A stretch of DNA of 64,000 nt from Spirochaetia bacterium. Its GTDB lineage: Bacteria; Spirochaetota; Spirochaetia; JAFGXN01. Numbering within the stretch: the first letter of the stretch is position 1; every line of letters starts with the position of its first letter. This document shows positions 6,466 through 35,378 of the stretch, one piece after another. The position numbers were made by a program, and so were the translations under genes. The notes under the pieces are model-generated. The model saw only the letters and a list, made by a program, of their open reading frames with translations, was not told the origin of the DNA and did no database searches. The stretch spans positions 7,467 to 71,466 of the forward strand of contig JAXEIF010000005.1 in assembly GCA_034120015.1 (NCBI GenBank), written 5' to 3'.

Positions 6466-6798
6466 TTATATCAATTTGACCTTCACATTTTGAGGCACGG
6501 AGAAAACACCGAAAAGCCGGTTCAAAACATCAACGGAAGCATAATGGCATGATTCGTTTTTGTTGATAACGGACAGAAGATACTCCAAATCAGACTGCCC
6601 CGACCCGATACCTGCCTCGCGATCGAAAAAAGCGGCACAAAAAGCCGGTTTATACAACCCCAAATCTGCCAGCTGCCGGGAAGTTTTTGTTTTGTATTTG
6701 CGTTTCAGCGTTTTATCGACAATGACAACATTATCGTAAGAACCGACCGTAAAAATAAAATCTTCTTTCTTCATATATATCAATTTAACATAATTCAT
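6466..6798 (-). CDS. Small hypothetical protein (about 110 aa). The listed ORF start at 6894 overlaps pdxA and is probably too long.
   Basis: The reading frame is open. Internal Met codons at 6798 and 6774 follow the pdxA stop. No motif was recognised. Confidence 0.3.
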   Translation of the reverse strand: MNYVKLIYMKKEDFIFTVGSYDNVVIVDKTLKRKYKTKTSRQLADLGLYKPAFCAAFFDREAGIGSGQSDLEYLLSVINKNESCHYASVDVLNRLFGVFSVPQNVKVKLI

Positions 6799-7862
6799 TT
6801 TAAATGACAATTCTTTTTTTCGTTTCCTGCCGGACGAAGCACCATGCGCGCTGCCGCGGAAATCGCCTCCTTCATTCCGGTTGCATCGGCGCACCCTTTC
6901 CCTGCAATATCGAATGCGGTACCATGATCGACGGAAACGCGCAGAAACGGCAGCCCGGCTGTGACGGAGACTGTTCGATGAAAATCCAGCGTTTTACAGG
7001 CGATATGTCCCTGATCATGATAAAGTGATACAACGGCATCGAATTTCCCCTCTGCCGCCTGAGCAAAGACCGAATCGGCTCCGACCGGACCGACCGCGTC
7101 GATACCTTCCGCAACGGCAGCCTCCACCGCCGGTGCGACCGCCGTCATCTCTTCATCGCCGAGCAGACCGTGTTCACCGCAATGCGGATTGAAACCGGCC
7201 ACCGCAATCTGCGGCCGTTCAACGCCCCACTGCCGCAGAACATCCCGACAGCGCCCGATAAACCGGCACAGCGCCCCGGTTTCCAGAGTCGCCGGTACCT
7301 TCGAAAGCGGCAGGTGCCGTGTATAAAAAAAGACACACAGCTTGCCGGTCAGAAAAACCGTTAACGGATTTTCCGATCCGGTGAGCCCCGCGAAGATTTC
7401 GGTGTGACCGATATACGGCACGCCCGCCGCGCGCAGCGACTCTTTGTTCAGAGGTGCCGTCACCACCGCGTCACAGAATCCCTTTTCGACCAGACGAACG
7501 GATTTTTCGACGGCATCATACGCTGCCGAGCCGCCCGCGGCCGAGACAGTCCCCCATTGCCATTCCCCCGGATCGGGACAGTCGGCATATTCGATCACCG
7601 ACGAACGCAGCGGTCTCCTTCGGCTGACATCAAACGGACGCAAACGCAAGCGGACACCCAAAGACACCGCGGTTTTTTCCCAAACCGGACGGGCTCCGAC
7701 CAGAACCATCCTCGCCTGCCGCCGCAACCGCCGGTCGACGGCCGCCCGAATCGCAATTTCCGGACCGATACCGGCCGGGTCACCGGCTGTCACCGCCAAA
7801 ACGGGAAGCTGACTGTTTTCTAACATATATACCGCCTTATCCTGTTTTATAAAAAAAGGCAC
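6795..7862 (-). CDS. pdxA: PdxA-family 4-hydroxythreonine-4-phosphate dehydrogenase-like NAD-dependent dehydrogenase
   Basis: 355 aa with 'LAVTAGDPAGIGPEI' and 'VSLYHDQGHIACK', which are typical PdxA motifs. PdxA2-type substrate specificity cannot be excluded. Confidence 0.8.
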   Translation of the reverse strand: MPFFIKQDKAVYMLENSQLPVLAVTAGDPAGIGPEIAIRAAVDRRLRRQARMVLVGARPVWEKTAVSLGVRLRLRPFDVSRRRPLRSSVIEYADCPDPGEWQWGTVSAAGGSAAYDAVEKSVRLVEKGFCDAVVTAPLNKESLRAAGVPYIGHTEIFAGLTGSENPLTVFLTGKLCVFFYTRHLPLSKVPATLETGALCRFIGRCRDVLRQWGVERPQIAVAGFNPHCGEHGLLGDEEMTAVAPAVEAAVAEGIDAVGPVGADSVFAQAAEGKFDAVVSLYHDQGHIACKTLDFHRTVSVTAGLPFLRVSVDHGTAFDIAGKGCADATGMKEAISAAARMVLRPAGNEKKNCHLK

Positions 7863-7927
7863 TGCGCCTTTGCCTGTTTCCGATTCGGAAAAGACCGCTG
7901 CAGTGCCCGTTTATCGGGATCAACCCC

Positions 7928-9598
<1,671 letters not shown>

Positions 9599-18142: not shown

Positions 18143-20404
18143 ATGAAAAAATTTCTAACAGGGGGGATTATTTTTTTTCTCCTCTTCACAGGATGTCCGC
18201 AGCCGGAAACGGATTCGGATATTTTTACCGGCATTAAAGTTGCCGATTTTTTTGTTTTTGCGGAAGGAGATACTTCCGGTTCGGTAACAAAACCGTTCAC
18301 TTTTCAAACGGAAAAAAACGGAATGAAAATGACTGTTAAAGTTCCTTCATCAATGACCGTTACAGGAAATACAATTTCCGTCAACTGGTACAACGTCTAC
18401 TCTCCGACACAAGAAGCTGTTCTGACAGCAACACTCACAAAAGACGGTCAAAGCAAAGCCTTTCCTTTTACGGTCGTCTTAAAACGGACTCTCGGCTCGA
18501 TGCCCGTTTCCGAACTGATTCTCTTTGATGAAAAACTGGATACTATCGATGCCGTTACAAGCAGTTTTACACTCTCGCAGACAACCGGCAAGTACGGAGA
18601 AACAGTGTCATGGAATTTCACCACGGAATCGCCAGATCTTGTTTACGACGAATCGACAGGTCGGGTCTCGGTTACCCTGACAAACGATCGTCAAAGCGCA
18701 ACTGCCGAAGCTGTTTTTACAAAAGAAGGCTTTGAGTCTGTCACAAAGACTTTTGATCTGATCATTTTGACATCAAGCGAAGGCTATTCATGGACACCCG
18801 ATTCCTTAACCGACTATATTACCCTCGGTAACAGCGGAAAAGATTACCTGTGGCGTATTCGCGATAACTTTACCCTAAAAACATCATTCGATGCCGAATC
18901 CGGTCACGGCGCGGGAACCGTTACATGGACATCTTCCGATGACGCCGCCATTTCCGTTAACGGCAGTACGGCAACCGTTACCCGCGGTTTGGACAGCCAA
19001 AAGGTAACTCTGACAGCAACATTTCAGGAAACAGATTCCGAGAAAAAATCAAAAGATCTTACAATTGATGTTCTTGTCATGGAAACAATTCCGGCAACTC
19101 TGACCGTTGACGGAAAAACCTATAAACTGGTCTATTTTGACGCTTTCGACAATCAAGCCATTCTGGAAGCCAACTGGGATATAGGCAATCCGGGACACAA
19201 TGCGCCGGAAATCGGCAACAACAATCTCGACCCGACCTACTTCAAAGCTCCTGACGGACAGTTCCACGGATACGCCGATGAATGGCAAAAACAACCGACA
19301 TGGTCACCGAAAGCCACTTACATCGAAGACGGAAAAGCACGTCTGCTGGCTAAATACGACACGGAAGCCCAAATCGGCGTTGCCGGAGCACTTCACTCCA
19401 AACGGCTTTTCCCTCACGGCGTTTTTCACGCCAGATGGACTCAGAAACGTGACAGCGATTCCCACTGGGACGCTTACTGGCTCGACACCAATCAGCCCTT
19501 CTCCAAAGCCTACGGCGAAAAACTCCTCAATCTCCCGAAAGCCCTTCGCAAACAGGTGGCAGAGTCATCCCGCGGTGAGGGGTTCTTCGATAACAAAGCT
19601 TCAAACATTCAGCACGGAAATACTGCTGTATCGAATCCGATTCTCTATCAGTCTCAATACACTCTAAAAACAGACAGCTCTATACCCGACTGGGGATTTA
19701 CCGCTGCAAAACGGGTAGACAAAATCGGACGATGGTACAACGGCGAGCAGCGCTACGAACTGGACGCTTACGAGTGGGTCAACGGTACCGGACAGAATAA
19801 CGTGATCCACACCTGGCACTGGATGAGAGGTTTCCCGGGAAACCAAACAGGTTCTCTGAGTGGCGTAGACAAAAAGTGGTATGTCGGAGACGTTGCACGC
19901 AACCAGGGGAAAGTAGGCGGATACTCCACTACCTATTCGGCAGCCGTCAATAAAACACCCTCTTTTACTCTCACAGCGCTGTACAATGACAGCAAAATTG
20001 CTTTTTACTATAACGCTCACGGTGAAAATAATTTTTCTTCTCCCAAATATTCCCGCTCCAAACAGACCGGAGATATGTTTGACCCCAACATAACGGAAGA
20101 AGATAATAGACAACCGTGGCCGAACGACGAGTTTAATCCCGTTCAGGTGAAATTTACGGTTGAACCGGGGCAGTGGGACGATAATTTTTATCAAATTACA
20201 ACAGCTTTCCGAAATAACCCTGAAAATTACGATGCTATGGATATCGAATACTTCGCCTACTACGCAGCGGAAGACGATATGCTCAATCCGAACATCGGAG
20301 ACGAAAACAGCGGTGTTCCTTTAACGGCGATTACCGATATGGATAATGTCACAGAATTCGCTGAAACACAAGCCAAACTGACAAAGGAATGGGTACAGAA
20401 ATGA
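18143..20404 (+). CDS. Surface lipoprotein with three N-terminal Ig-like repeats and a C-terminal GH16-like (concanavalin-fold glycoside hydrolase) domain
   Basis: Lipoprotein signal 'FLLFTGC'. Three repeats of about 90 aa are each predicted by the sequence to bind nothing recognisable but share an ending pattern (…FPFTVVL / …FDLIIL / …TIDVLV). The C-terminal domain has 'WDIGNPG', 'HSKRLFPHGVF', 'HWDAYWLDTNQPFSKAYGEK' (compare GH16 'WPAFWML') and 'YELDAYEW' (ExDxxE catalytic motif). Confidence 0.65.
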   Translation: MKKFLTGGIIFFLLFTGCPQPETDSDIFTGIKVADFFVFAEGDTSGSVTKPFTFQTEKNGMKMTVKVPSSMTVTGNTISVNWYNVYSPTQEAVLTATLTKDGQSKAFPFTVVLKRTLGSMPVSELILFDEKLDTIDAVTSSFTLSQTTGKYGETVSWNFTTESPDLVYDESTGRVSVTLTNDRQSATAEAVFTKEGFESVTKTFDLIILTSSEGYSWTPDSLTDYITLGNSGKDYLWRIRDNFTLKTSFDAESGHGAGTVTWTSSDDAAISVNGSTATVTRGLDSQKVTLTATFQETDSEKKSKDLTIDVLVMETIPATLTVDGKTYKLVYFDAFDNQAILEANWDIGNPGHNAPEIGNNNLDPTYFKAPDGQFHGYADEWQKQPTWSPKATYIEDGKARLLAKYDTEAQIGVAGALHSKRLFPHGVFHARWTQKRDSDSHWDAYWLDTNQPFSKAYGEKLLNLPKALRKQVAESSRGEGFFDNKASNIQHGNTAVSNPILYQSQYTLKTDSSIPDWGFTAAKRVDKIGRWYNGEQRYELDAYEWVNGTGQNNVIHTWHWMRGFPGNQTGSLSGVDKKWYVGDVARNQGKVGGYSTTYSAAVNKTPSFTLTALYNDSKIAFYYNAHGENNFSSPKYSRSKQTGDMFDPNITEEDNRQPWPNDEFNPVQVKFTVEPGQWDDNFYQITTAFRNNPENYDAMDIEYFAYYAAEDDMLNPNIGDENSGVPLTAITDMDNVTEFAETQAKLTKEWVQK

Positions 20405-21969
20405 AATTTTACAGAACTGTTTTAACATCAATGGGAATGGGGGCAGCGGCTTTGGCCGTTGCCGGCTGTCCCGAAGAACGCAAACCGATTTATCCCGACC
20501 AACTGACAATGCCGGGAACCGGAAACGACCAAAAGGCGGTCAAAACCGCATCCGAATACGGTATCAGCGAAAAGCCGAACGTTATTTTTATTCTTCTTGA
20601 CGATGCCGGCCACGGCGATATCAGCTGTTACGGGCAGAAGAATTTTCAAACGCCCAATATTGACAGTCTGGCAAAGAACGGTATCCGCTTTGTCAACAAT
20701 TACGCCGGTGCCCCGGTCAGTGCCTCATCCCGCTGTGCACTGTTTACCGGTAAGACGACCGGACACAGTGCCATTCGCGGTAATCTCGAACTGGGCGCCG
20801 GAGTCGGGTTGGATCCCGCAACCGTCACCAAAGAAGGCCAGGAAGGACTCCCCGATTCGGAATATACTCTGGCACAGTTATTCAAAGAGAACGGCTACAA
20901 CACCGCCCTGGTCGGAAAATGGGGTATGGGAATGCCGATAAACAACAGCTCTCCACTGAACAAAGGATTTGATCATTATTACGGACACCTTTGCCAGCGG
21001 ATGGCGCATTCCTACTTTCCCGATCACGTTTGGGAAGACGATTCAAAGGTTGAATTCAAGGACAACACAGGGATGACCGGAAATGTGTGGCTTCACGATG
21101 AATTCGAAAAGAAAACAGCCGAATATCTGACAACATACCTCGCGGAGTCCACACCGTTTTTTCTGTTTTGCACCTACACCATTCCGCACGGCGCTCTGCA
21201 AATCCCGGACGGGAAACTCAACGATGCGAATTATCATCCTTACACAACCGCCGAATGGTGGAGTAAAGCTTCGGATGATATGAAACGGTATGCGATTATG
21301 ATGCACCGCGTGGATCTGACTGTCGGAAAGATTATCGATCAGGTTGAGGCAGCAGGAAAACTGAACAATACCCTGATTCTTTTTTCCAGTGACAACGGAC
21401 CTGCCGACGAATACGGCGCCGATCCGAATTTTTTTGAAAGCGCCGGACGTTTCGGCAATGAACGGCTTCGCGGCATTAAACGCGCTTTGTACGAAGGAGG
21501 TGTTAAAGTTCCGTTTATCGCATCATGGAACGGAACAATCAAACCTGCCGAAAGCCTGCATATCATGGCCGGGTATGACATTATGGCGACGATGGCTCAA
21601 ATATTGGGAACCGATTTATCGCAAAAAACAAAAACCGACGGACTCTCTTTTCTTCCGACATTAATGGGCGATACCGTCAACCAGAAAGAACACCCCTATC
21701 TTTATTGGGAATTTGTCGGCAATACGGCTTCGGAAGGCGGCGGCCCCCGGCAGGGAGTCCGCAGCGGTGACTGGAAAGCGATTTTGAACTTCGGAGTAAC
21801 AACTTCGGCCAAAGCAGGCGAAGGGAATATCGAACTTTACCATTTGGGCGATGATCCCGGAGAGGCTGATAATGTCGCCACTCTTTACCCCAATATTATT
21901 GCGTCGATGAAACAAATTATGATAAACGCTCATGACAACAATGATAAATTCCCTCAAATAAAAAAATAA
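20401..21969 (+). CDS. Sulfatase-family (alkaline-phosphatase superfamily) lipoprotein with a non-canonical active-site motif
   Basis: Lipobox 'LAVAGC'. 'NVIFILLDDAGHGDISCYGQ…TPNIDSLAKNGIRFVNNYAGAPVSASSRCALFTGK' aligns with the sulfatase signature, but C-x-P-x-R is replaced by S-A-S-S-R. A start at 20401 gives an ATGA overlap with the upstream stop; the ORF track starts at 20389. Confidence 0.8.
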   Translation: MKFYRTVLTSMGMGAAALAVAGCPEERKPIYPDQLTMPGTGNDQKAVKTASEYGISEKPNVIFILLDDAGHGDISCYGQKNFQTPNIDSLAKNGIRFVNNYAGAPVSASSRCALFTGKTTGHSAIRGNLELGAGVGLDPATVTKEGQEGLPDSEYTLAQLFKENGYNTALVGKWGMGMPINNSSPLNKGFDHYYGHLCQRMAHSYFPDHVWEDDSKVEFKDNTGMTGNVWLHDEFEKKTAEYLTTYLAESTPFFLFCTYTIPHGALQIPDGKLNDANYHPYTTAEWWSKASDDMKRYAIMMHRVDLTVGKIIDQVEAAGKLNNTLILFSSDNGPADEYGADPNFFESAGRFGNERLRGIKRALYEGGVKVPFIASWNGTIKPAESLHIMAGYDIMATMAQILGTDLSQKTKTDGLSFLPTLMGDTVNQKEHPYLYWEFVGNTASEGGGPRQGVRSGDWKAILNFGVTTSAKAGEGNIELYHLGDDPGEADNVATLYPNIIASMKQIMINAHDNNDKFPQIKK

Positions 21970-21984
21970 TAAAAGGAGAAATCT

Positions 21985-23571
21985 ATGAAAAAGAAATCAT
22001 TACTGTTTTTAGGCGTATTAACCGCTTCGGCTCTGTTTTTCGGATGTCCCGGACCGGAAGAATCGGCAGACGCCACCTCTCTGACATTGACGACACCGCA
22101 GGCCTACCTGGCCCCCGGACTGACAATGACCGTCACGGCTACTGTCAAACCGGAAGGATTTCCGGTCACCTTTTCCTCCGACAATATGGGCGTTGCCTCC
22201 GTCAGCAATAAAGGGGTTGTATCGGGCGTTTCCGAAGGAACGGCAACAGTTACAGCCGCTGCCGGAACAAAAAAAGCGAGCGCAACCGTGACCGTTGTGC
22301 CCTATACGTCCGTTTCGATAGCGCCTCTTCCTGAAGACGATTACACTATTCCCAATACAACGTCAAAACAGCTGACACTGAAGTGGGAACCTTCCGGTGT
22401 TTCAGTTGCTCCCGAGATTATCAAATGGGTCAGTTCCAATCCGGACGCCTTCCCGGTCGATAAAAACGGACTGGTCACCTCGAACAGCGATACGGAATCA
22501 GCTGAAATTCATGCCGAAATTTACGACGGACTGATGAAAACAAAAGCCGTTACCGTCAGCGGGGACGAAGCGCCTCCCGTTCCGGCACCGGTTGTCGAAA
22601 ATTTGCGGGCATTCACCGGTGATGCCCGTTACACCATTTACTGGGATGCAGTAGAAAATGCAACGGAATATAAACTTTATTGCACAACTGACACCGCCAA
22701 ACCGGCAGAAGCAACTGCCACATTAACAGAAACATCTCATCATGTTACATCTGCAACAAATGGAGAAACAATCAACATTTGGGTCGAAGCAGTCGTAGCG
22801 GGCACCGTTCAGATCAATGACCCGGCACACACAACTGTAACGGTCGGATACAACGGAAACAGCAATGCATCGATTACAGTCGATTCGCAAACCTACACAC
22901 TCGACCGCGAAGTCGATTTCCGCGAAGGAACTTTCGAACAGAAATGGCCGACATCGACAATACTTTACAGTGTCGATTCAGAGACAGGTATTTTAACGCA
23001 AAAAGGCGGCAGCGGTTCTTCCGGTAGCAGTTATATGGATGAGGCTGACGGAGCCGGAGCCAATTCACGCTTAATCTGGACTCCGCCCGCAGATGTGCTT
23101 CCGATCTCCGAATACAGTTATATCGAGGTTGAACTGAAAACTTCACAGCCGTCGGGCACCCCTGGATTCTGGGTCGTTCTGAACCACAACAATATCATCA
23201 GTTATGAACTTGTTCATTATAACAACAATAATCCGAACGGATGGTTTCTGTCTTACGGTGGTGAATGGCGCAGTAACGGAAAAACACAAAAATTTCATGC
23301 CGGATCAGGAATTTCACTCCCTTCTCAAGGCGATATTCATAAATTCGGAATTTTATTTCCCGATAAAACACCTTCAAAAATACGAATCTATTCAGATCGA
23401 ACAACGGCCTACGTTAATAAGAATAGTTTTGACGGCGGAAATGCTGCGTCGGCACCTCAATCATGGACAGAGAATATACCGACCTATTTCGAATTTATCT
23501 TCGGAGCAGCCGACTGTCCGAACTATACGGCAGAAATTTCCAAAATCCGCTACTATAAAGCGTCCAACTAA
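21985..23571 (+). CDS. Surface lipoprotein with Big_2-like Ig domains and a C-terminal beta-sandwich domain of unknown function
   Basis: Lipobox 'LFFGC'. Big_2-like segments are present (…GVVSGVSEGTATVTAAAGTKKASATVTV…). No catalytic motif was recognised. Confidence 0.55.
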   Translation: MKKKSLLFLGVLTASALFFGCPGPEESADATSLTLTTPQAYLAPGLTMTVTATVKPEGFPVTFSSDNMGVASVSNKGVVSGVSEGTATVTAAAGTKKASATVTVVPYTSVSIAPLPEDDYTIPNTTSKQLTLKWEPSGVSVAPEIIKWVSSNPDAFPVDKNGLVTSNSDTESAEIHAEIYDGLMKTKAVTVSGDEAPPVPAPVVENLRAFTGDARYTIYWDAVENATEYKLYCTTDTAKPAEATATLTETSHHVTSATNGETINIWVEAVVAGTVQINDPAHTTVTVGYNGNSNASITVDSQTYTLDREVDFREGTFEQKWPTSTILYSVDSETGILTQKGGSGSSGSSYMDEADGAGANSRLIWTPPADVLPISEYSYIEVELKTSQPSGTPGFWVVLNHNNIISYELVHYNNNNPNGWFLSYGGEWRSNGKTQKFHAGSGISLPSQGDIHKFGILFPDKTPSKIRIYSDRTTAYVNKNSFDGGNAASAPQSWTENIPTYFEFIFGAADCPNYTAEISKIRYYKASN

Positions 23572-26074: not shown

Positions 26075-28477
26075 TTAATCATTCACATCATTCCCGATTG
26101 CCGGGTACTTACCGCCTGTATCCCATGCATAGAAGGCAAAAAATTCGGCTACCGTTGAATCGGGCTTCTCTTCGGTCAATGTGTCTCTGGCATCATAAAT
26201 CAAATCGTGATTATTATTCCATTGTCCCAGTTCGGACGAATATTTCACCTGAATCGGAGCCCATTCATCGGCAGGGAACGGCGTCGGACACTCGGCATTA
26301 CCGAAACAACCTTTATAAAAAACTTCACGGGCAGACGAAGTCGGAATATCGTTAAAATTCCAATTCCAATCGGACGGGAAATTATACATTCGAACCAGTC
26401 CGTCGGAAGTCACCAGCATTGCCAAATAAAACCAATCCTGACTGCGAGCCTGTCCGGCATCCTGATAAGAATGATAAATCCGCCCTACAGCTCCTTCCTT
26501 ATCATTTTTTCTGAAATCATTTGTTATATAATAATTTCCGTCACTACCGCCGCCGTAAGTCGCCCCCTGACTCATACGGTCGTCCCACCCCGGGTATCCG
26601 CCGTACCACGACCACATATGCGTAACCATCCACTGTGTATTATCGTTTGAAACCCACTCATACATATCATATTCGTAGACCTGTTGCCCGTTCAATCCGC
26701 GGGCGGCTGCATTGGAATGCAAATTATTCTCATTGTTGAATTTGTATTTTGCAATTTGATTTATCCCCGCAGCGGCTCCCGGCGGCATAAACAGCGTTTT
26801 GTTGCCGTATTCTTTCGAAAACGGATTATTGCTTTCCGCCCACCAGGCATCCCAATGGCTGGCGTTTTTACTGTCCCGTCCGGAGAAATCATGACGGATT
26901 TTAGTAACAAACAATCCACTCGGAAACTGCCGCTTCGAGTGTACGGCTCCCGCCAATCCGTATCCGGATTCCTGATTCGCTCCCTTATTTGGGATAAAGC
27001 TATCGCCGGCCGGTTCGGTCGTACTGTCTGTTGTTGTCGAAATATTTTTGTTGGGGATCGTTTTATCGTAAAAAACATCAATCCAAAGGCAACCGTCCTT
27101 AATACGAACGGCCTTAGGAGACCAGTACGGCTGTTTATAGCGGTCATTTTCGTACCCCCGAATGCCGTCCGGTCCGAACGTTTTCGGACCGCTCAATTCA
27201 AGTCCCATATTACCGATCTCAGGACGCTGAATTCCGGGGTTTCCGATATCCCAATCGGCCTCCAGTGTCTCCATAGAGTCAAACGGATCGTAATATGTCA
27301 GACTGAGAACCTTTCCTTCGACAGCGACTTTTGCGGGAATCATGCCGGGTGCGGGCGGCGTAACGGTTTCAATGATATCTCCGTTTTCGTCGAACTCAAT
27401 CACTTCGATTGATTCGTCTAAATAGTAAAATGCAACATGATCGACAGTAACGGTAACAGACTGATTTGCATTGTTATCTTCCGTTCCGAAATAGAGCCAA
27501 TAAGTTTCTTGAGAAGGAATCTCGAAATTATCGGGATTTGTAACCGAATAGATCGAAGTAGCGTCAAAAAAAGACATCAATAGATTTTTTTCAAAAATCA
27601 TCCCGTAAGTATGATACGTATTCGGTTCAACTGAAAAACCTTTTGGACTTCGACCTCCTTTCAATCTGGCTTTGATCGAAGCATCCCAGTTGTTAAAAAA
27701 TTCATTGGCCCATCCGCGTTTTTGATTTTGATTAATTGGATTTGTATCAGTTTGAGCAGCATCCACTGTTCCCAAACCGCAACCGATAGCCGTATTTAAT
27801 CCGTTATTACTGAGAGATGCGGTTATTTCCACATATCCTAAAGTTTTGCCGGCCTCTACTCCCGGATAAAGTGCCTCGGCAATAGTTAACGGATAGCTGA
27901 CGCCGCCCGTCACTGCCGCATTACCGGGCGTTTTAAAAGTCAGCTCTCCCTTTTCTGAGTCTACTTCAAAAACGGCGTCATTGGGACAATCTTGATGTTG
28001 CGTCCATTCTTTTCCCACACCGGTTTTCGAAAAATCAAACAGTGAAGCAATACGATAGCCTTTTCCGTTACGATGAACCACTTCCTGAACACCTTCCGGA
28101 ACCTCGACCGAGCACGTTGCCTGTGCTTTCGAATTTGCTTTACTGATTGCCTTCAACTCAACTGTTCCGGCAGTATTGCCGGCAACAAGAACAGTCACAT
28201 TGCCTTTTTGAACCACATCCACAATCTCTTTGTCGGACGATTGCAGGATAAATCCCTTTTCTGCGGCGGTCGTGTTTACAGTAACCGCAATGCGGGAAGC
28301 AGTATTTTTCCATAACGTCATTTTGCTCTGACCGAAAGAAATTTCAACCGCAACATCCTTATTACCGCCACTTCCGCCTCCTTGATCCACGGACGGACCG
28401 GGAGGTGGACATCCTACCGAAAATAATACCGCAAGAATAAAAAGCAAACCTTTCTTCATAAACTTTCTCCTCTCCAT
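26075..28477 (-). CDS. GH16-like glycoside hydrolase lipoprotein with an N-terminal Ig-like/Big domain and a carbohydrate-binding-like module (tandem duplicate 1)
   Basis: 800 aa with lipobox 'FSVGC' and a Gly-rich linker. It has the same C-terminal motif set (WDIGNPGIQRPEIGNMG, HSKRQFPSGLF, HWDAWWAESNNPFSKEYG, YEYDMYEWV). The N-terminal 350 aa are highly similar to those of the 28597 gene. Confidence 0.65.
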   Translation of the reverse strand: MERRKFMKKGLLFILAVLFSVGCPPPGPSVDQGGGSGGNKDVAVEISFGQSKMTLWKNTASRIAVTVNTTAAEKGFILQSSDKEIVDVVQKGNVTVLVAGNTAGTVELKAISKANSKAQATCSVEVPEGVQEVVHRNGKGYRIASLFDFSKTGVGKEWTQHQDCPNDAVFEVDSEKGELTFKTPGNAAVTGGVSYPLTIAEALYPGVEAGKTLGYVEITASLSNNGLNTAIGCGLGTVDAAQTDTNPINQNQKRGWANEFFNNWDASIKARLKGGRSPKGFSVEPNTYHTYGMIFEKNLLMSFFDATSIYSVTNPDNFEIPSQETYWLYFGTEDNNANQSVTVTVDHVAFYYLDESIEVIEFDENGDIIETVTPPAPGMIPAKVAVEGKVLSLTYYDPFDSMETLEADWDIGNPGIQRPEIGNMGLELSGPKTFGPDGIRGYENDRYKQPYWSPKAVRIKDGCLWIDVFYDKTIPNKNISTTTDSTTEPAGDSFIPNKGANQESGYGLAGAVHSKRQFPSGLFVTKIRHDFSGRDSKNASHWDAWWAESNNPFSKEYGNKTLFMPPGAAAGINQIAKYKFNNENNLHSNAAARGLNGQQVYEYDMYEWVSNDNTQWMVTHMWSWYGGYPGWDDRMSQGATYGGGSDGNYYITNDFRKNDKEGAVGRIYHSYQDAGQARSQDWFYLAMLVTSDGLVRMYNFPSDWNWNFNDIPTSSAREVFYKGCFGNAECPTPFPADEWAPIQVKYSSELGQWNNNHDLIYDARDTLTEEKPDSTVAEFFAFYAWDTGGKYPAIGNDVND

Positions 28478-28596: not shown

Positions 28597-30912
28597 TTAT
28601 TCAGCTACATCAGTCTCCACCGATGTATACTTGCCCGTATCCCAGGCATAGAACGCAAAGAATTCGGCATGCATGATATCGGGATTCTCCGGGGTCAGCC
28701 GATCTTTTTCATTATAAATAAGGTTATGCATATTCTGCCAGTCTCCCAGCTCGGATGAATATTTGACCTGAATCGGCGCATAGGTGTCGGCATTCATGAA
28801 CGGTGCCGTCACACCGGAGTTTCCGAAAGCACCTGTCGTTTTGTTCATCTGACTCTTTCGTGTTCCGGACTGGGAAAAATCCCAATTCCAGGTTTTCGGG
28901 AAGTTCCACATCACCACCTTTTCGGGGGTGACCAGCATCGCCAGATAAAACCAGTCTCCCGAAGAAGCCTGTCCGCCATCCAAATAGTTATTGCTGAATG
29001 TTCCGGAAATTCCGTTATTGTCTCTTCCTCTCAGATTATCCGAAGTCGACCAGTAATTGTTATCGCCCCCGCGGGTCTCATAGCGGTCTTCCCAACCCGG
29101 GTATCCGCCGTACCAGGCCCAGGAATGAAGCACCTGCCACTGACTCTGATTGTTACCGACCCATTCATACATATCGTACTCATATACCTGCTGACCGTTT
29201 AACCCGCGATCGGAGGTCGGAACATCGGTATACTCATCGGAAGTCGTTATATTTTTTGCCCGACGGATTCTGCTTTCCCCTCCTTCCGGCATAAACAGCT
29301 CTTTTTCGCCGTAAGCACGGCTGAACGGGTTGTTGCTTTCGGCCCACCAGGCATCCCAATGTGCATTGGTTTTTGCTGAACGATTTCCCCATGAATGTTT
29401 AATTTTGGTGATAAACAGTCCGCTCGGAAACTGTCGCTTGGAATGGATAGCGCCGGCCAAGCCGTATCCTGTTGTATCATATGTGCCACCACTTCCGGGG
29501 ACCCATCCTTCCTGACCATTGTTCACATTTTTATTCTGAATCGTCTTATCAAAGAAGACTTTTATTAACAATTCTCCGTTTTGAATATCGACCGCTTTCG
29601 GCGACCAGTAAGGCTGCTTGTAACGGTCACCGGAATAACCTTTAATCCCGTCATCAAAAGTCACCAATGTCGGAGATGCGATTCCCTCATTTCCGATTTC
29701 GGGACGTTCAATCCCCGGATTACCGATATCCCAGTTTTCCTTCAAAACATCCATACTGTCAAACGAGTCGTAGTGAGTCAGTTTTAAGATTTTTCCGTCA
29801 ACCGCAATCCGTGCCGGAATCATACCGGGGGCAGGAGGCGTAACCGTTTCGATAATGTTACCTTCCTCATCAACCTGAATCACTTCCATCGAGTCATCAT
29901 AGTAATAGAAGGCAACCGTATCCACAGAAACCGTAACAGTCGTGCTGCTGTTACCTGTTTTTCCGAAATAAAGATAATAAACACTCCCGTCATTGGGAAT
30001 CGCATAGTCTCCCGCTGCTTTACTGTTGTTTTCAATTCCGTCCGTATAGGCTGTCAAATTGGATCCGTCGAGAAAGGAAATCCCGAAAGCATGGTCTTTT
30101 CCTGTTTCAATCGTATAGGCATTTCCCCTACTGTTTGCCAGACGGGATTTCCAAACAGAATCACTGGTATCAATGAATTCATTCGCCCAACCGCGGGAAT
30201 TGTTATCTCCGGCCATATCCGCACTGCCGAGTCCCATTGCAACCCCCGTATCGGCACCGGCGCTCACCTGAGCAATCACTTCGGCATAAGCAACGTTCTT
30301 GCCAGACAGTGCCAGTCCGGCAACAAGACCTTCCTGCAGATCAAGCGAATAATTGGCTTCGGTGGAATCGGCGCCGGAAATAGTCGTAATCTTTAAAGAT
30401 CCGTCGCTGAATTCGCGGGAAAATTTGGCCTCAGTTCCGTCTTTATATGTCCATGTTCCTTTCAAACCTGTTGTTTCAAAATCAAACAGAGAAAGCAGAC
30501 GAAAGCCTTTTCCTCCACGATGTACAACTTCCTGAATGCCGTCAGGTACAGTAACCGTACAGGTTGCTTTTGCCGACTTATCCGCTTTACTGACAGCCGT
30601 AAGAGTCACCGTACCGGGCAGATTCCTGGCTGTAATCACAGGATTTCCATCCGTCTGTAAAGAAATTTTAACAATATCCTCATTCGAAGAGGTTAGCGTA
30701 TATCCTTTTTCCGATGCTTTGGTTACAACATTGACAGCCAACCGCGAAGAAGTATTCTTCCATAGTATCATTTCAGCCTGACTGAAAGAAATTTGAACTT
30801 CTGGAGCTGTGCTGTTCCCGCCACCATTCCCGTCTCCTCCCGGTGTAGGTGTAGGTGGAGGACATCCCACTGTCAGCAATGTTGCCAAAAATAAAAAACA
30901 AAGCTTTTTCAT
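28597..30912 (-). CDS. GH16-like glycoside hydrolase lipoprotein (tandem duplicate 2)
   Basis: 771 aa with lipobox 'LTVGC', a Pro/Gly linker, and the motifs WDIGNPGIERPEIGNEG, HSKRQFPSGLF, HWDAWWAESNNPFSRAYGEK and YEYDMYEWV. Confidence 0.65.
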   Translation of the reverse strand: MKKLCFLFLATLLTVGCPPPTPTPGGDGNGGGNSTAPEVQISFSQAEMILWKNTSSRLAVNVVTKASEKGYTLTSSNEDIVKISLQTDGNPVITARNLPGTVTLTAVSKADKSAKATCTVTVPDGIQEVVHRGGKGFRLLSLFDFETTGLKGTWTYKDGTEAKFSREFSDGSLKITTISGADSTEANYSLDLQEGLVAGLALSGKNVAYAEVIAQVSAGADTGVAMGLGSADMAGDNNSRGWANEFIDTSDSVWKSRLANSRGNAYTIETGKDHAFGISFLDGSNLTAYTDGIENNSKAAGDYAIPNDGSVYYLYFGKTGNSSTTVTVSVDTVAFYYYDDSMEVIQVDEEGNIIETVTPPAPGMIPARIAVDGKILKLTHYDSFDSMDVLKENWDIGNPGIERPEIGNEGIASPTLVTFDDGIKGYSGDRYKQPYWSPKAVDIQNGELLIKVFFDKTIQNKNVNNGQEGWVPGSGGTYDTTGYGLAGAIHSKRQFPSGLFITKIKHSWGNRSAKTNAHWDAWWAESNNPFSRAYGEKELFMPEGGESRIRRAKNITTSDEYTDVPTSDRGLNGQQVYEYDMYEWVGNNQSQWQVLHSWAWYGGYPGWEDRYETRGGDNNYWSTSDNLRGRDNNGISGTFSNNYLDGGQASSGDWFYLAMLVTPEKVVMWNFPKTWNWDFSQSGTRKSQMNKTTGAFGNSGVTAPFMNADTYAPIQVKYSSELGDWQNMHNLIYNEKDRLTPENPDIMHAEFFAFYAWDTGKYTSVETDVAE

Positions 30913-31068
30913 ACAATTAATCTCCTTTTATTTAAATTATATTAACATTATAAAAGAAGTTTTCGCCGTTTGCAAACAAAAAAAAATTTTTATTTTCCAA
31001 ATCTCATTTTTCGCACATGTGAAATTTAATACTTGTATTTTACAATAGCAACTATTAAAATACATTTT

Positions 31069-32934
31069 ATGAAAATACGTACATTATTTTTAATTTCATC
31101 ACTGCTTTTATCGTCGTGCCTGTCCGTCGACGTTCAGGAGTCTGTTTCCCGCACCGACGATACGGACTATCTTCCGCCGATTGATCTGACGGCAGCCGAA
31201 TCGGCACCACGGGCGCTGATCCCTTTTCCGCGTCAAACGACATGGGGTACCGGAGAATGGATTCTCGAACGATGCACCGTGACCCGCAAAATCGAAACAC
31301 TATCGTTCAGTTCCTCTCCCGAAGCCTATTTACTGACCGTTGCCGACGGCCGCATCGAAATCAAAGCCAACGGGGAAAAAGGGCTTCGATACGCGGATTT
31401 GACCCTGAATCAGCTGACCGAAAACGGCCGCAAGCCGGTGCCGGCCTGCACTATCCGCGACTACCCGGCCTTCTCCGTCCGCGGTTTTCACCACGATACC
31501 GGAAGGAACTTTCAAAGCATCGCCTCTCTGAAAGAACAAATCCGCCGTCTGGCCGCTTACAAACTCAACACATTCCACTGGCACATTACCGACAATCCGG
31601 GCTGGCGGGTCGAATGCAAAAAATACCCTGTTTTAAACGATCCGAAAACAATGTACCGCAGTACCGAATTCTATACTTACGACGAAATCCGCGATCTGAT
31701 TTCTTTCAGCAACGATCTCGGCGTTCAGGTGATTGTGGAACTGGACATGCCCGGACACAGCAAATTCTTTCCGAAAGCGTTCGGTTTTTCGATGGGATCG
31801 CAAAAAGGAACGCAAATCTGTCTCGATCTGATTCAGGAATTCTGCGATGAAATTCCGGTCGAAATGGCACCGGTTATTCACGTCGGAGCCGACGAAGTCC
31901 GTGCTCCCGTTATCGACGAATTTATGCCGTTGGTAGAAGCCAAACTGAAAGAAAACGGACGTACAGGTATGGTCTGGAATCCGGGAATCAAATCCTCTCC
32001 CGATGTCATCGAGCACACCTGGTTTGAAAAGGCTCAACAGCCCGGTTACCGCAACATCGATTCGAGCGGGCTTTACACCAATACTCTCGATTTTTTCAAT
32101 GTGATTCAGGCCATTTATTTCAAACAACCGTGCGAAGCGCCTACCGGTTCCGATACGGAACTGGGAGCGATTGTCTGTAACTGGAACGATGTAGCGATAT
32201 CCGACGAAAAAGATGTTTTGCTGAACAACCCGGTTTACAGTTCGGGAATCACGGCAGCCGAGATTTTTTGGAACGGAAATCCGACCGGCAGCCAGCGTTA
32301 CAAACAGATCCTGCCTCCGTCCGGTTCGGACGCGCTTCGCGCTTTTGCCGAGTTCGAAAACCGTCTGATAGCCCATAAGAATCTTTACTTCGGAGATGTC
32401 GGTGCCGGGTTTATTTACCCCAGACAGTCCGATCAGGTTTGGCAGCTGACAGGGCCAGACGGTACGACGGTCGAAGCCAGAGGTGTTTCGCTGCTTTTAA
32501 GCGATTATTTTCCGAATGCCCGAAAACGGCAGGCAGCGGTCTGCCGTTTGGAAATCGAAAGCGAAACCGACCGCGAAGTGCTGCTTCATGCCGGGTTTGA
32601 TGTACCCGGCCGTGCACACCGTTTTTACGGCGGTGTTCCCCCGAAAGGAAAATGGGATCGCTACGGCAGTACGATTACTTTAAACGGGAATCCCGTCGAG
32701 CCGCCCCGGTGGCAACAGCCGGGCGCCTACCGGCACGATATTGTCCAGACATGGGATCACCCGGTACAGGAAGTCCCCTGGACCGCCGAAGAACTCTACT
32801 GGCGCCGCGAACCGGTGCGGGTTCAACTGAAAAAAGGTGTCAATGTGATTGAAGTCAGGGCTGTCAAAAACTCACCCAAACAGATTTGGATGACAGCTCT
32901 CTGGCTTGAAGATGTTGGGGAATCGGTAAAATGA
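31069..32934 (+). CDS. GH20 beta-N-acetylhexosaminidase, lipoprotein
   Basis: 'RGFHHDTGRNFQSIASLKEQIRRLAAYKLNTFHWHITDNPGWRVE' and the catalytic-region motif 'HVGADEV' (H-x-G-G-D-E type). Lipobox 'LLSSC' if the start is at the MKIRT codon at 31069. Confidence 0.85.
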   Translation: MKIRTLFLISSLLLSSCLSVDVQESVSRTDDTDYLPPIDLTAAESAPRALIPFPRQTTWGTGEWILERCTVTRKIETLSFSSSPEAYLLTVADGRIEIKANGEKGLRYADLTLNQLTENGRKPVPACTIRDYPAFSVRGFHHDTGRNFQSIASLKEQIRRLAAYKLNTFHWHITDNPGWRVECKKYPVLNDPKTMYRSTEFYTYDEIRDLISFSNDLGVQVIVELDMPGHSKFFPKAFGFSMGSQKGTQICLDLIQEFCDEIPVEMAPVIHVGADEVRAPVIDEFMPLVEAKLKENGRTGMVWNPGIKSSPDVIEHTWFEKAQQPGYRNIDSSGLYTNTLDFFNVIQAIYFKQPCEAPTGSDTELGAIVCNWNDVAISDEKDVLLNNPVYSSGITAAEIFWNGNPTGSQRYKQILPPSGSDALRAFAEFENRLIAHKNLYFGDVGAGFIYPRQSDQVWQLTGPDGTTVEARGVSLLLSDYFPNARKRQAAVCRLEIESETDREVLLHAGFDVPGRAHRFYGGVPPKGKWDRYGSTITLNGNPVEPPRWQQPGAYRHDIVQTWDHPVQEVPWTAEELYWRREPVRVQLKKGVNVIEVRAVKNSPKQIWMTALWLEDVGESVK

Positions 32935-35378
32935 CAGACAGATCCCGCATTCTTTTCAGTCTGCTGATATTTCTCTCATCTCTTCCGACAGATGCATCGG
33001 CAGCCGAACCGGGAAACAGAGTTCTTTTCTACACTTCGCCCGCAGAAAACTGGGAACAGGAATCTCTGCCGATCGGTAACGGCTGGATGGGCGCCTCCCT
33101 CTTCGGAGGTATCGAAAACGAACGTATTGTTCTGAACGAAAAAACATTATGGGAAGGCGGTCCGGGAGAATGGGACGGATACGGGAAACCCGATCCGAAT
33201 AAAGGCGCTTTTGCCCTGCCGGAAATTCGTAAAGCGGTTGAAGAAGGAAAATACGGAGAGGCGCACCGTCTTGCCGAAAAATATCTGACCGGCAATGGCA
33301 CGGGAAAAGGCGCTTATCAGCCGCTCGGAACGCTGGATATCCGTTTTCCGGGAATTAAACGGCAGAAAGGCTCTTATATCCGCAAACTCGATACCGGAAA
33401 CGCGGTACACACCGTTTCTTTCTCGCAAAACGGGGTCGAATATACGCGGAACGCTTTTGCCTCTTACCCGGATAAAAGCATCGTCTTTTCGTTCTCTGCG
33501 GACCGTCCGCAATCGGTTGCTTTCAACCTGCAGTGGGAAACCGTCAACGAAACAAAAAACTATTACGACACCTATAAAAACGAATTCGTCTGCCTCAACC
33601 CGAATGTCCGCACAGGCCGCACCGAAACAGTCGCCGTCGAACGTCTCGGCGACGATACGGCCAAAATGACGGTCGAAGGTATTTTAAACAACAACGGCAT
33701 GAAATATGCCGCCGTCATTTACATAAAAGCCGTCAACGGCACGGTCGGTACCGACGGAAAATCGGCGGCCGTCCGCGGAGCCGATCGGGCCGTTCTCTTT
33801 TTTGCCGCCGCCACCGATTACGCCAACGAATATCCCCGCTACACAAGCGGCCGGAATCCGTTGCCGGTCGCCGACGCCTTTGCCCGCGAAGCGTTTGCGA
33901 AAGGCGAAACCCGGGTTTACCGAAATCACATCCGCGATTATACCGGACTGTTTGAACGCACCGCACTGCGTTTGACGGACAGCGATGAAACGTTGACGGA
34001 TGTTCCGACCGACAAACGGCTGAAACAGTTCCGCAGAAACCGCGACCCGATGTTTTTGGAACTGCTTTTCAACTACGGAAAGTATCTGCTGATTGCCTCC
34101 TCCCGCGAAGGATCGCTTCCGCTCAACCTGCAGGGCGTCTGGAACGCATATACGGCACCTCCCTGGAGCAGCGATTACCATACCAATATCAATCTTCAGA
34201 TGGCTTACTGGCCGGCGGAACCGCTTCATTTGGGAGAAATTCACAAACCGCTGCTCGACTACATTCCGACACTGGTTCAACCGGGAGAAATCACCGCCCG
34301 TCACTATTACGGAACCGGCGGATGGGTCTGCCACACCAGCAATAACCCTTTCGGAGAAACGCAGCCCGGATGGGGAATTGTCTGGGGACATTTCCCGGGC
34401 GCGGCCGCCTGGCTCTGCCGTCATTTGTGGGATCACTACCTTTATACGCAGGATACCGCTTTTCTGAAAGAGGTCTATCCGACGGTCAAAGGAGCCGCAC
34501 AATTTTGGGCCGATTGGCTGACAACAGATAAAAACGGCAATCTGATCTCCTGCCCCTCTTATTCGCCGGAACACGGTACGATTTCCGCCGGTGCAACAAT
34601 GGATTTTGAAATCGCTTTCGAAATTCTGAACACCGCAATTACCGCTTCCGAAATCCTCGGTACAGACAATACCGAACGGGAAATATGGCGGAGCATTGTC
34701 AGCCGGATTCCGCCGCTGAAAATCGGACGATGGGGACAGCTTCAGGAATGGACCGAAGATATCGACTCAAAAACAGATAAACACCGCCATATCTCGCATC
34801 TCTATGCTCTGCATCCGGGAACACAAATCTCTCCGATTACGACACCCGAGACGGCGAAAGCTGCCGCCGTCACACTGAAAGCCCGCGGTGACAAAGCCAC
34901 CGGATGGTCGATGGCGTGGAAAATGAATTTTTATGCCCGTTTGGGAGACGGAGATCATTCGTATAAGCTGCTGCGGAATTTCGTACGGTTCACCGAACGA
35001 TCCGGAGTAGCTCTTTCGGGAGGAGGCTTTTACCGGAATTTGTGGGATGCCCATCCGCCGTTTCAGATCGACGGGAATTTCGGCATTGTTTCCGCTTTTA
35101 TCGAATGGGTTTTGCAAAGTCACAACGGAGAAATACATCTTCTGCCTGCTCTTCCTTCCGCAATCAAAAACGGCCGGTTCGACGGTTTTAAAGCCGCCGG
35201 CGGGTTCACGGTTTCCGCTTCCTGGAAAAAAGGAAAAATGAACGAAGCCGTTATCCGATCCGATGCCGGGAAACCGTTAACGGTTCGCTACGCCGGCAAA
35301 ACGGTCGATATCGATCTGAAACGGGGCGAATCGGTTCGCCTCAACGGCAATCTGGAGATTCTTTCTTCGGACCGATAA
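32931..35378 (+). CDS. GH95-family alpha-L-fucosidase
   Basis: 815 aa. The N-terminus 'ESLPIGNGWMGASLFGGIENERIVLNEKTLWEGGP' and the 'PLNLQGVWN' motif are characteristic of GH95. Its start is coupled to the GH20 stop by an ATGA overlap. Confidence 0.85.
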   Translation: MTDRSRILFSLLIFLSSLPTDASAAEPGNRVLFYTSPAENWEQESLPIGNGWMGASLFGGIENERIVLNEKTLWEGGPGEWDGYGKPDPNKGAFALPEIRKAVEEGKYGEAHRLAEKYLTGNGTGKGAYQPLGTLDIRFPGIKRQKGSYIRKLDTGNAVHTVSFSQNGVEYTRNAFASYPDKSIVFSFSADRPQSVAFNLQWETVNETKNYYDTYKNEFVCLNPNVRTGRTETVAVERLGDDTAKMTVEGILNNNGMKYAAVIYIKAVNGTVGTDGKSAAVRGADRAVLFFAAATDYANEYPRYTSGRNPLPVADAFAREAFAKGETRVYRNHIRDYTGLFERTALRLTDSDETLTDVPTDKRLKQFRRNRDPMFLELLFNYGKYLLIASSREGSLPLNLQGVWNAYTAPPWSSDYHTNINLQMAYWPAEPLHLGEIHKPLLDYIPTLVQPGEITARHYYGTGGWVCHTSNNPFGETQPGWGIVWGHFPGAAAWLCRHLWDHYLYTQDTAFLKEVYPTVKGAAQFWADWLTTDKNGNLISCPSYSPEHGTISAGATMDFEIAFEILNTAITASEILGTDNTEREIWRSIVSRIPPLKIGRWGQLQEWTEDIDSKTDKHRHISHLYALHPGTQISPITTPETAKAAAVTLKARGDKATGWSMAWKMNFYARLGDGDHSYKLLRNFVRFTERSGVALSGGGFYRNLWDAHPPFQIDGNFGIVSAFIEWVLQSHNGEIHLLPALPSAIKNGRFDGFKAAGGFTVSASWKKGKMNEAVIRSDAGKPLTVRYAGKTVDIDLKRGESVRLNGNLEILSSDR

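Follow-up and report, generated by a model that had tools for sequence, protein, structure and literature searches.

The locus described here raises the question of whether a sulfatase whose nucleophile loop departs from the accepted maturation motif can still be a formylglycine-dependent enzyme. The window, a 64,000-nucleotide stretch of contig JAXEIF010000005.1 from a Spirochaetia bacterium, contains an S1_20-like sulfatase open reading frame (ORF) of 526 residues at 20389..21969 (+), identified by PF00884 and PDB matches. Its core maturation motif reads S111-A-S113-S-R115 (20719..20733, +), in which S111 sits at the formylglycine-precursor position (position 0), S113 replaces Pro or Ala at +2, and R115 is the conserved Arg at +4. 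We favor, with a probability of about 0.62, the reading that the ORF encodes a functional, surface-anchored and formylglycine-dependent S1_20-type sulfatase, a Gal-3-O-sulfatase resembling BT1636 of Bacteroides thetaiotaomicron, which would be matured by the anaerobic sulfatase-maturating enzyme (anSME) on a clade-fixed S-x-S-x-R loop.

Identity and conservation of the nucleophile loop

Pfam analysis assigned PF00884 to residues 63-407 (163 bits, 1.3e-47, cut-off 25), and the SGSH_C sub-domain was also matched. In the frame of the ORF, positions 20719-20757 encode S-A-S-S-R-C-A-L-F-T-G-K-T (residues 111-123), and the full sulfatase signature P-V-S-A-S-S-R-C-A-L-F-T-G-K, defined by alignment to homologs and PDB sequences, spans 20713..20754 (+). 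The homolog set comprised the best 120 sequences from 5.8 billion proteins, among which P0001-P0009 form a clade at 53-93% identity to the query, and the other 111, at 43% or less, are the distant homologs. The loop aligns column by column with the C/S-x-P-x-R loop of these distant homologs, which have Pro at +2 and Arg at +4 in 111/111 cases each, and with that of PDB entries 7ANA (PVSAPAR) and 7AN1 (PVSAPSR). It is therefore the nucleophile-bearing loop, and a misalignment is ruled out. The initial annotation had described a sulfatase-family lipoprotein whose loop aligns with the sulfatase signature and lacks the Pro of C/S-x-P-x-R; both statements are borne out by the PF00884 match, the lipobox and the loop alignment, and its reservation that this might not be the nucleophile loop can be set aside.

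Within the clade, SASSR is carried by the query, P0001-4, P0007 and P0008 (53-93% identity), CAPSR by P0005 and P0006, and SAPSR by P0009. All 50 of the 50 distinct loop-covering members of six 90% clusters, drawn from independent assemblies, carry SASSR, down to 53% identity. The Ser codons switch synonymously among lineages (AGT or AGC for S111, TCA or TCT for S113), and each is one step from the Cys (TGT) or Pro (CCC) codon of the CAPSR ortholog. The ratio of nonsynonymous to synonymous substitution rates (dN/dS) between the window and locus L061, which carries the 93% ortholog, is 0.10 at an unsaturated dS of 0.37. Other SASSR pairs mostly gave values of ~0.05-0.2, with most comparisons near saturation, and the near-identical L001/L106 pair gave 0.47. 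The uniform motif, the synonymous codons and the low dN/dS therefore exclude a sequencing or frame error hiding a CxPxR motif, as well as a recently decaying pseudogene.

The clade is sparsely represented. Species-representative genomes contain one member, in L001, a metagenome-assembled genome (MAG) of an uncultured Spirochaetes bacterium; in an exhaustive representative search the whole clade falls into one 50% cluster, that of P0007; and a scan of JGI metagenomes yielded no clade members, the top match having 40% identity. P0008, which has the SASSR loop and lies on a contig of 3980 nt, departs at many C-terminal invariant positions (the YWEF block is missing, in addition to K463V and E492Q) and is perhaps damaged or mis-assembled.

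Two further features that the initial annotation had singled out are present but not unusual. Ser occupies position 0 in 16/111 distant homologs and in both nearest crystal structures, BT1622 and BT1636, and a Cys directly follows the motif Arg in 30/111 (27%) distant homologs with a canonical motif, as it does in the CAPSRC orthologs P0005 and P0006. By alignment, the sole real departure from the canonical loop is the change from Pro to Ser at +2.

Integrity of the remaining active site

We examined 95 columns in which conservation among the distant homologs reaches 93% or more. Among them, P113S is the only 100%-conserved column altered specifically in the SASSR proteins; other systematic differences (e.g. 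A70L, G187S, R373K and P400A) are common to the CAPSR members of the clade. The first Ca2+ ligand pair, D71-D72 (20599..20604, +; D37/D38 in BT1636), is found without exception in the 111 homologs and the SASSR proteins, and alignment places the second pair at D335-N336 (21391..21396, +; D328/N329 in BT1636). In total, D71, D72, R115, K177, H267, D335, N336 and K364 are kept in 7/7 SASSR proteins. The S1_20 galactose-recognition signature is present as C-Q-R-M-A-H-S-Y-F-P (20992..21021, +), which fits at 9/10 positions with a Met at the variable one (L/Q/H/E in homologs). Its Q203 and H207 correspond to the Q173/H177 dyad of BT1636, both residues being invariant in the 111 homologs, and E341 and R365 are the counterparts of the BT1636 O2 ligands E334 and R353. 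A catalytically dead protein, one of the fates first proposed, is thus not favored, as all other catalytic residues are kept and the gene is under strong purifying selection.

A search of representative sequences provided S1_20-like proteins for comparison. The decay control P0336, an unrelated homolog with an SSSSR loop, carries K177E and H267S, has lost the Gal dyad, and is probably a pseudo-sulfatase. The active sites of P0230 (C-A-S-A-R) and P0355 (C-A-T-S-R) are wholly intact, so that Ser or Thr at +2 has had independent origins among S1_20-like enzymes with no other defect. P0251, a 1028-residue multi-domain protein, and P0351 contain S1_20-like domains with Gly at the nucleophile position (G-x-A-x-R) and the other catalytic residues kept; these sulfatase domains may be non-catalytic binding modules.

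Rarity of serine at the +2 position

The fetched loci contain 200 distinct ORFs of the sulfatase-like type, and the +2 residue is Pro in 190, Ser in 4, Ala in 3, Val in 2 and Leu in 1, and all four ORFs with Ser belong to the SASSR clade. A set of 158 domains from 149 diverse representatives included 147 canonical ones; the non-canonical loops were CxSxR, SxSxR, CxTxR and CxVxR (one each) and CxAxR (two), and in 5/158 domains the nucleophile or the +4 Arg is missing. In the SulfAtlas alignment of 4058 S1 sequences, +2 is Pro in 87% and Ala in 9%, followed by Ser in third place, then Thr, Val and others, each below 1%. The updated PS00523 pattern, [CS]-x-[PA]-x-R, agrees with the query at positions 0 and +4, and the +2 Ser falls outside [PA]; since the SulfAtlas alignment itself holds <1% Ser at this position, the pattern is not absolute. 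Ser at +2 is rare, outside the published [PA], and was on record earlier without comment.

Other unusual loops were seen on the fetched loci. L035 (~17400) and L023 (~16830) of Dyadobacter and L042 (~5150) of Sporocytophaga encode Cys-type sulfatases with a bulky aliphatic residue at +2 (C-M-V-S-R, C-V-L-S-R), outside CxPxR; Dyadobacter and Sporocytophaga are aerobic genera, expected to use the formylglycine-generating enzyme (FGE). In three archaeal MAGs (L058, L059 and L060), the loop of a sulfatase-fold protein aligns as T-S-T-L-P-C-F, in which Thr takes the nucleophile position and the Arg is missing; these proteins are probably Thr-nucleophile transferases or phosphatases rather than sulfatases.

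Maturation and export

The initial annotation held that anSME needs C/SxPxR, a view that is too narrow. The accepted maturation consensus is C/S-X-P/A-S/X-R, and anSME matures CXAXR sulfatases according to the accounts of Berteau et al. 2006 in PMC2459300 and PMC10154612. Reviews and secondary papers, from which our statements on the tolerance of anSME and FGE are drawn, describe the contacts of anSME with its peptide as mostly made to the backbone, which explains its promiscuity, and the motif Arg as the anchor in both maturases. Compared to the anSME-substrate motif (C/S)-X-(P/A)-X-R, SASSR fits at 0 and +4 and fails at +2. Ser is close to Ala in size. Taken together, these data suggest that anSME, a radical S-adenosylmethionine (radical-SAM) enzyme, would act on the unfolded precursor in the cytoplasm and oxidize Ser111 to formylglycine despite the +2 Ser, with recognition resting on backbone contacts and the +4 Arg.

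The setting is consistent with such a route. The GroEL of the host is 76-79% identical to those of Sphaerochaetaceae and Bullifex MAGs, which places this organism among uncultured Spirochaetia; groups of the Sphaerochaetaceae and Bullifex type are anaerobic, and the host lineage is probably anaerobic too. A literature search for anaerobic sulfatases of Sphaerochaeta returned nothing. In the genome of the relative P0007 (L062), a second sulfatase of the canonical Ser type (N-S-A-P-S-R) lies at 6535-7965 (+), 2 kb upstream of P0007. A Ser-type SAPSR sulfatase requires anSME, and an anSME is therefore implied in this relative. L062 additionally encodes a 274-residue Phosphodiest-family protein.

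The N-terminus of the query agrees with export in an unfolded state. The real start is probably ATG 20401 (MKFYRT...), 12 nt inside the ORF start, because this codon forms an ATGA overlap with the upstream TGA stop, is preceded by AAGGAA, and corresponds to the MKF start of the orthologs; the longer start at ATG 20389 adds four residues (MGTE) absent in the P0002 ortholog. A signal peptide with the lipobox A-V-A-G-C is read at 20401..20469 (+), the lipidated Cys being residue 27, and the lipobox Cys stands at the equivalent place in the orthologs of L061 (P0001) and L001. A twin-arginine motif is absent from the N-terminus, so that the sulfatase would be exported unfolded via the Sec and signal peptidase II route that serves lipoproteins.

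FGE acts on Cys only and so has no bearing on a protein of the Ser type. What the initial annotation reported downstream as an FGE-domain protein is an FN3-rich surface protein of 918 residues (54593-57349, -), whose C-terminal FGE-sulfatase-like domain matches PF03781 at 91.9 bits. The domain is thus present, but both catalytic cysteines are absent: in alignment with 6MUJ and 2Q17, GGSYLCHDSYCNRYR matches GGSAYDNLQYA---R, and neither Cu(I)-binding Cys (C-x4-C) is found, the segment GGSAYDNLQYA standing against GGSYLCHDSYC in true FGE. Its PDB matches include the non-catalytic Treponema denticola variable protein 1 (2Y3C), with a score close to those of true FGEs. Judged by these residues, the protein is not a formylglycine-generating enzyme, and as a maturase of the sulfatase it is rejected on two counts, the missing cysteines and the inability of FGE to use Ser.

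Two other genes were considered as anSME and set aside. The sole radical-SAM neighbor in the clade flanks, a Radical_SAM + Radical_SAM_C gene at L062, is of a non-SPASM type, and the sole radical-SAM/SPASM ORF of all fetched loci, at L032, has a peptide-recognition-type N-terminal extension and does not resemble anSME in appearance.

Gene neighborhood and phylogeny

The sulfatase is the middle gene of a three-gene lipoprotein cassette, GH16-like / sulfatase / Big_2 (GH, glycoside hydrolase family). The upstream gene (18143..20404, +) encodes a 753-residue lipoprotein with aBig_2 (Ig-like) domains in its N-terminal part and, at the C-terminus, a divergent GH16-like domain containing ELDAYE, and its stop codon overlaps the sulfatase start as ATGA at 20401-20404, which indicates translational coupling of the two genes. 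The C-terminal 433 residues gave no Pfam match at E up to 5 and no PDB sequence match, so that neither PF00722 nor a CAZy family is assigned to them at the sequence level. Their AlphaFold2 model is of low confidence (pLDDT 51, core 70-86); a Foldseek search with this model returned GH16 enzymes for all of the top 50 PDB matches (E 4e-9, TMt up to 0.70), and the fold matches include the gut mucin O-glycanases 6T2R and 6T2P. ELDAYE (ExDxxE) is invariant in 19 aligned homologs, and the ORF has 49 homologs, nearly all without a name. On the basis of this model, the C-terminal domain is probably an unrecognized divergent GH16-like family restricted to these spirochaetes.

The third gene of the cassette (21985..23571, +), preceded by an AGGAG Shine-Dalgarno sequence, encodes a 528-residue lipoprotein in which an Ig-like Big_2 domain is combined with an unassigned C-terminal domain, and its position is conserved in L061, L106, L063 and L062. 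The cassette as such is kept in the SASSR loci L061 and L106, partly in L062, and also in the CAPSR locus L063 (P0005). The core SASSR orthologs share one chromosomal site, reading GroEL, transketolase and glyoxalase, then the cassette, then CvfB. In the P0004 genome (L107, 9451-12523), the sulfatase is kept at this site and both flanking Ig-domain lipoproteins, GH16-like and Big_2, are absent.

A neighbor-joining tree built with the motif columns masked placed P0007 (SASSR) outside a group that unites the CAPSR pair with the SASSR core (92% bootstrap), and the CAPSR and SASSR forms interleave on it. SASSR therefore arose twice or reverted once, and on either reading the CAPSR and SASSR forms would be interchangeable in the same role.

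Two genes with a 4-nt overlap lie 9-11 kb downstream of the sulfatase and encode a GH20 hexosaminidase (31033-32934, +) and a GH95 alpha-L-fucosidase (32931-35378, +). Together with the sulfatase and GH16-like genes, they suggest a region for the degradation of mucin or other host glycans in a spirochaete, a setting that makes an active 3S-Gal sulfatase plausible. The sulfatase would act jointly with the GH16-like endo-glycanase co-translated with it and with the GH20 and GH95 enzymes encoded nearby, taking the 3-O-sulfate off terminal galactose of host-type glycans that may be mucin or poly-LacNAc-like (LacNAc, N-acetyllactosamine). Between the cassette and the GH20/GH95 genes lie two paralogous-looking lipoproteins of ~800 residues (26075-28477, -; 28597-30912, -) with no confident Pfam match; both gave sub-threshold matches to a trans-sialidase C-terminal (lectin-like) domain, with E values of 0.005 and 0.02.

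Alternative explanations for the S-A-S-S-R loop

Several observations weigh against an active, anSME-matured enzyme. The window holds no ORF of at least 180 residues with CxxxCxxC, and hence no anSME or other radical-SAM gene, and no anSME gene was found within the 10-kb flanks of the clade loci. A literature search returned no experiment on a +2 Ser for any maturase. The invariant +2 Pro of the 111 nearest non-clade homologs indicates a position that is normally strongly constrained. A non-catalytic binder of sulfated glycans would likewise be expected to keep its sulfate- and Ca-binding residues, and the NCBI pipeline calls a cluster member just "sulfatase-like hydrolase/transferase".

The main alternative is a non-catalytic derivative, in which the loop stays unconverted and the lipoprotein serves as a surface binder of sulfated galactose, or as a trap limited to a single turnover, and passes glycans on to the GH16-like enzyme. 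The motif lies outside the accepted C/S-x-P/A-x-R, a lectin would keep the sulfate pocket too, the rest of the cassette consists of Ig-domain surface lipoproteins, and the NCBI name is generic. Moreover, the native, unmodified Ser forms of BT1636 and BT1622 can bind glycan, having been crystallized with LacNAc and lacto-N-biose (LNB). A pure binder, however, has no need of Ser111, which is invariant down to 53% identity through synonymous codon changes, and no catalytic residue has drifted, in contrast to the decayed P0336. In addition, a CAPSR ortholog occupies the same cassette, and L107 keeps the sulfatase though both flanking lipoproteins are lost. We consider such a binder unlikely.

A different maturase, co-evolved or of a kind not yet described, might instead be specific for S-x-S-x-R. 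In its favor, the +2 Ser is always paired with Ser at position 0 within the clade (SASSR versus CAPSR, or SAPSR in P0009). No candidate gene is conserved beside the sulfatase at any locus, though, and SASSR and SAPSR sulfatases occur together in the P0007 genome, which speaks for a single promiscuous anSME; a dedicated enzyme is thus distinctly improbable. A broader speculation combines the two ideas: the S-x-S-x-R lipoproteins would escape the standard anSME, either as 3-sulfated-galactose lectins feeding the GH16-like glycanase or as proteins needing a co-evolved maturase, and the paired change at 0 and +2 would be functional rather than neutral. We regard this as doubtful.

Direct attack by unmodified Ser111, in the manner of alkaline phosphatase or of the Thr in phosphoethanolamine and phosphoglycerol transferases, on a phosphoester or another non-sulfate ester, an idea first raised in the initial annotation, is very improbable. 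These enzymes share the superfamily fold, and the sulfatase has weak matches to Phosphodiest in Pfam (26.5 bits) and to PehA and YejM in NCBIfam. The latter two are far under their cut-offs (52.8 vs 900 and 18.8 vs 825 bits), so that no family match links the protein to the Ser/Thr-nucleophile families EptA/MCR, LtaS, YejM and PehA. All S1-specific and S1_20 galactose-recognition residues are kept, and the sequence has no N-terminal membrane domain beyond the lipoprotein signal peptide. Ser-type S1 enzymes, moreover, need conversion: E. coli cannot convert Ser, and active forms produced there required Ser-to-Cys mutants. A Cys-to-Ser mutant of arylsulfatase A (ARSA) was reportedly trapped as a sulfo-enzyme (Recksiek et al. 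1998), which also counts against an unmodified Ser nucleophile.

The shifted-Cys variant raised in the initial annotation, with Cys116 after the Arg becoming formylglycine, is effectively refuted by the family alignment: the Cys is there, but the same Cys accompanies a canonical motif in the 30/111 homologs and in CAPSRC P0005 and P0006, it is followed by A-L-F-T rather than x-P/A-x-R, and in S1 structures the residue after the motif Arg lies in a helix past the loop, away from the Ca site.

If formylglycine is made in the anSME-matured sulfatase that we favor, the anaerobic maturation signature widens from C/S-x-P/A-x-R to Ser at +2, and probably to Thr as well. Pattern-based pipelines, and apparently NCBI naming too, downgrade such proteins, which bears on sulfatase counts in gut metagenomes and on the design of anSME-based aldehyde tags. 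Uncultured gut-type spirochaetes would then possess a BT1636-like mucin-type Gal-3-sulfatase coupled to an unrecognized GH16-like glycanase, and in Bacteroides an enzyme of the BT1636 kind has been shown to act as a keystone in the use of mucin O-glycans. Should Ser111 stay unconverted, the protein would be a clean natural case of a sulfatase that has become a binding protein. Most likely, the sulfatase slightly extends a consensus that has already been widened once, from Pro to Ala, and is no new kind of enzyme.

Comparison with known sulfatases

In a PDB search, 7ANA (2.7e-86) and 7AN1 (1.3e-82) came out as the solved structures nearest to the query, and the next subfamily, S1_16, follows at 4e-45, placing the S1_20 entries ahead by 40 orders of magnitude. 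7ANA is BT1622 and 7AN1 is BT1636; both are S1_20 sulfatases of B. thetaiotaomicron, act specifically on 3-O-sulfated Gal(NAc) and are natively of the Ser type, S-A-P-x-R. Both share with the query ~45% identity over the full catalytic domain, the Ser at the nucleophile position, the Ca ligands D-D/D-N, the catalytic K/H/K/R and the Gal dyad Q/H, and BT1636 shares the E/R O2 ligands as well. BT1636 has been described as residing on the cell surface, in parallel with the lipobox of the query, and both stand in host-glycan degradation settings. They differ in the loop, which is S-A-S-S-R in the query and S-A-P-S/A-R in BT1636 and BT1622, and in context: the query is a spirochaete protein coupled to a GH16-like gene, whereas the B. 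thetaiotaomicron enzymes belong to Bacteroidota and to a Sus-type polysaccharide utilization locus.

The CXAXR sulfatases resemble the query in that, in the sulfatase of an anaerobe, a small residue naturally takes the place of the +2 Pro. They have Ala at +2 and experimentally shown formylglycine, whereas the query has Ser at +2 and a predicted formylglycine; they set the precedent for broadening the signature from (C/S)XPXR to (C/S)X(P/A)XR (Berteau et al. 2006, as given in PMC2459300 and PMC10154612). Closer still, P0005 and P0006 share 58-70% identity and the clade-specific substitutions with the query, and P0005 lies in the same GH16-like / sulfatase / Big_2 cassette; both differ in having the canonical Cys-type loop C-A-P-S-R. 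The degenerate P0336 (SSSSR) and P0251/P0351 (GxAxR or DxPxR) likewise present a non-canonical loop on an S1_20-like scaffold. They have lost the nucleophile, or K177 and H267 together with the Gal dyad, whereas the query clade has lost nothing other than the proline at +2.

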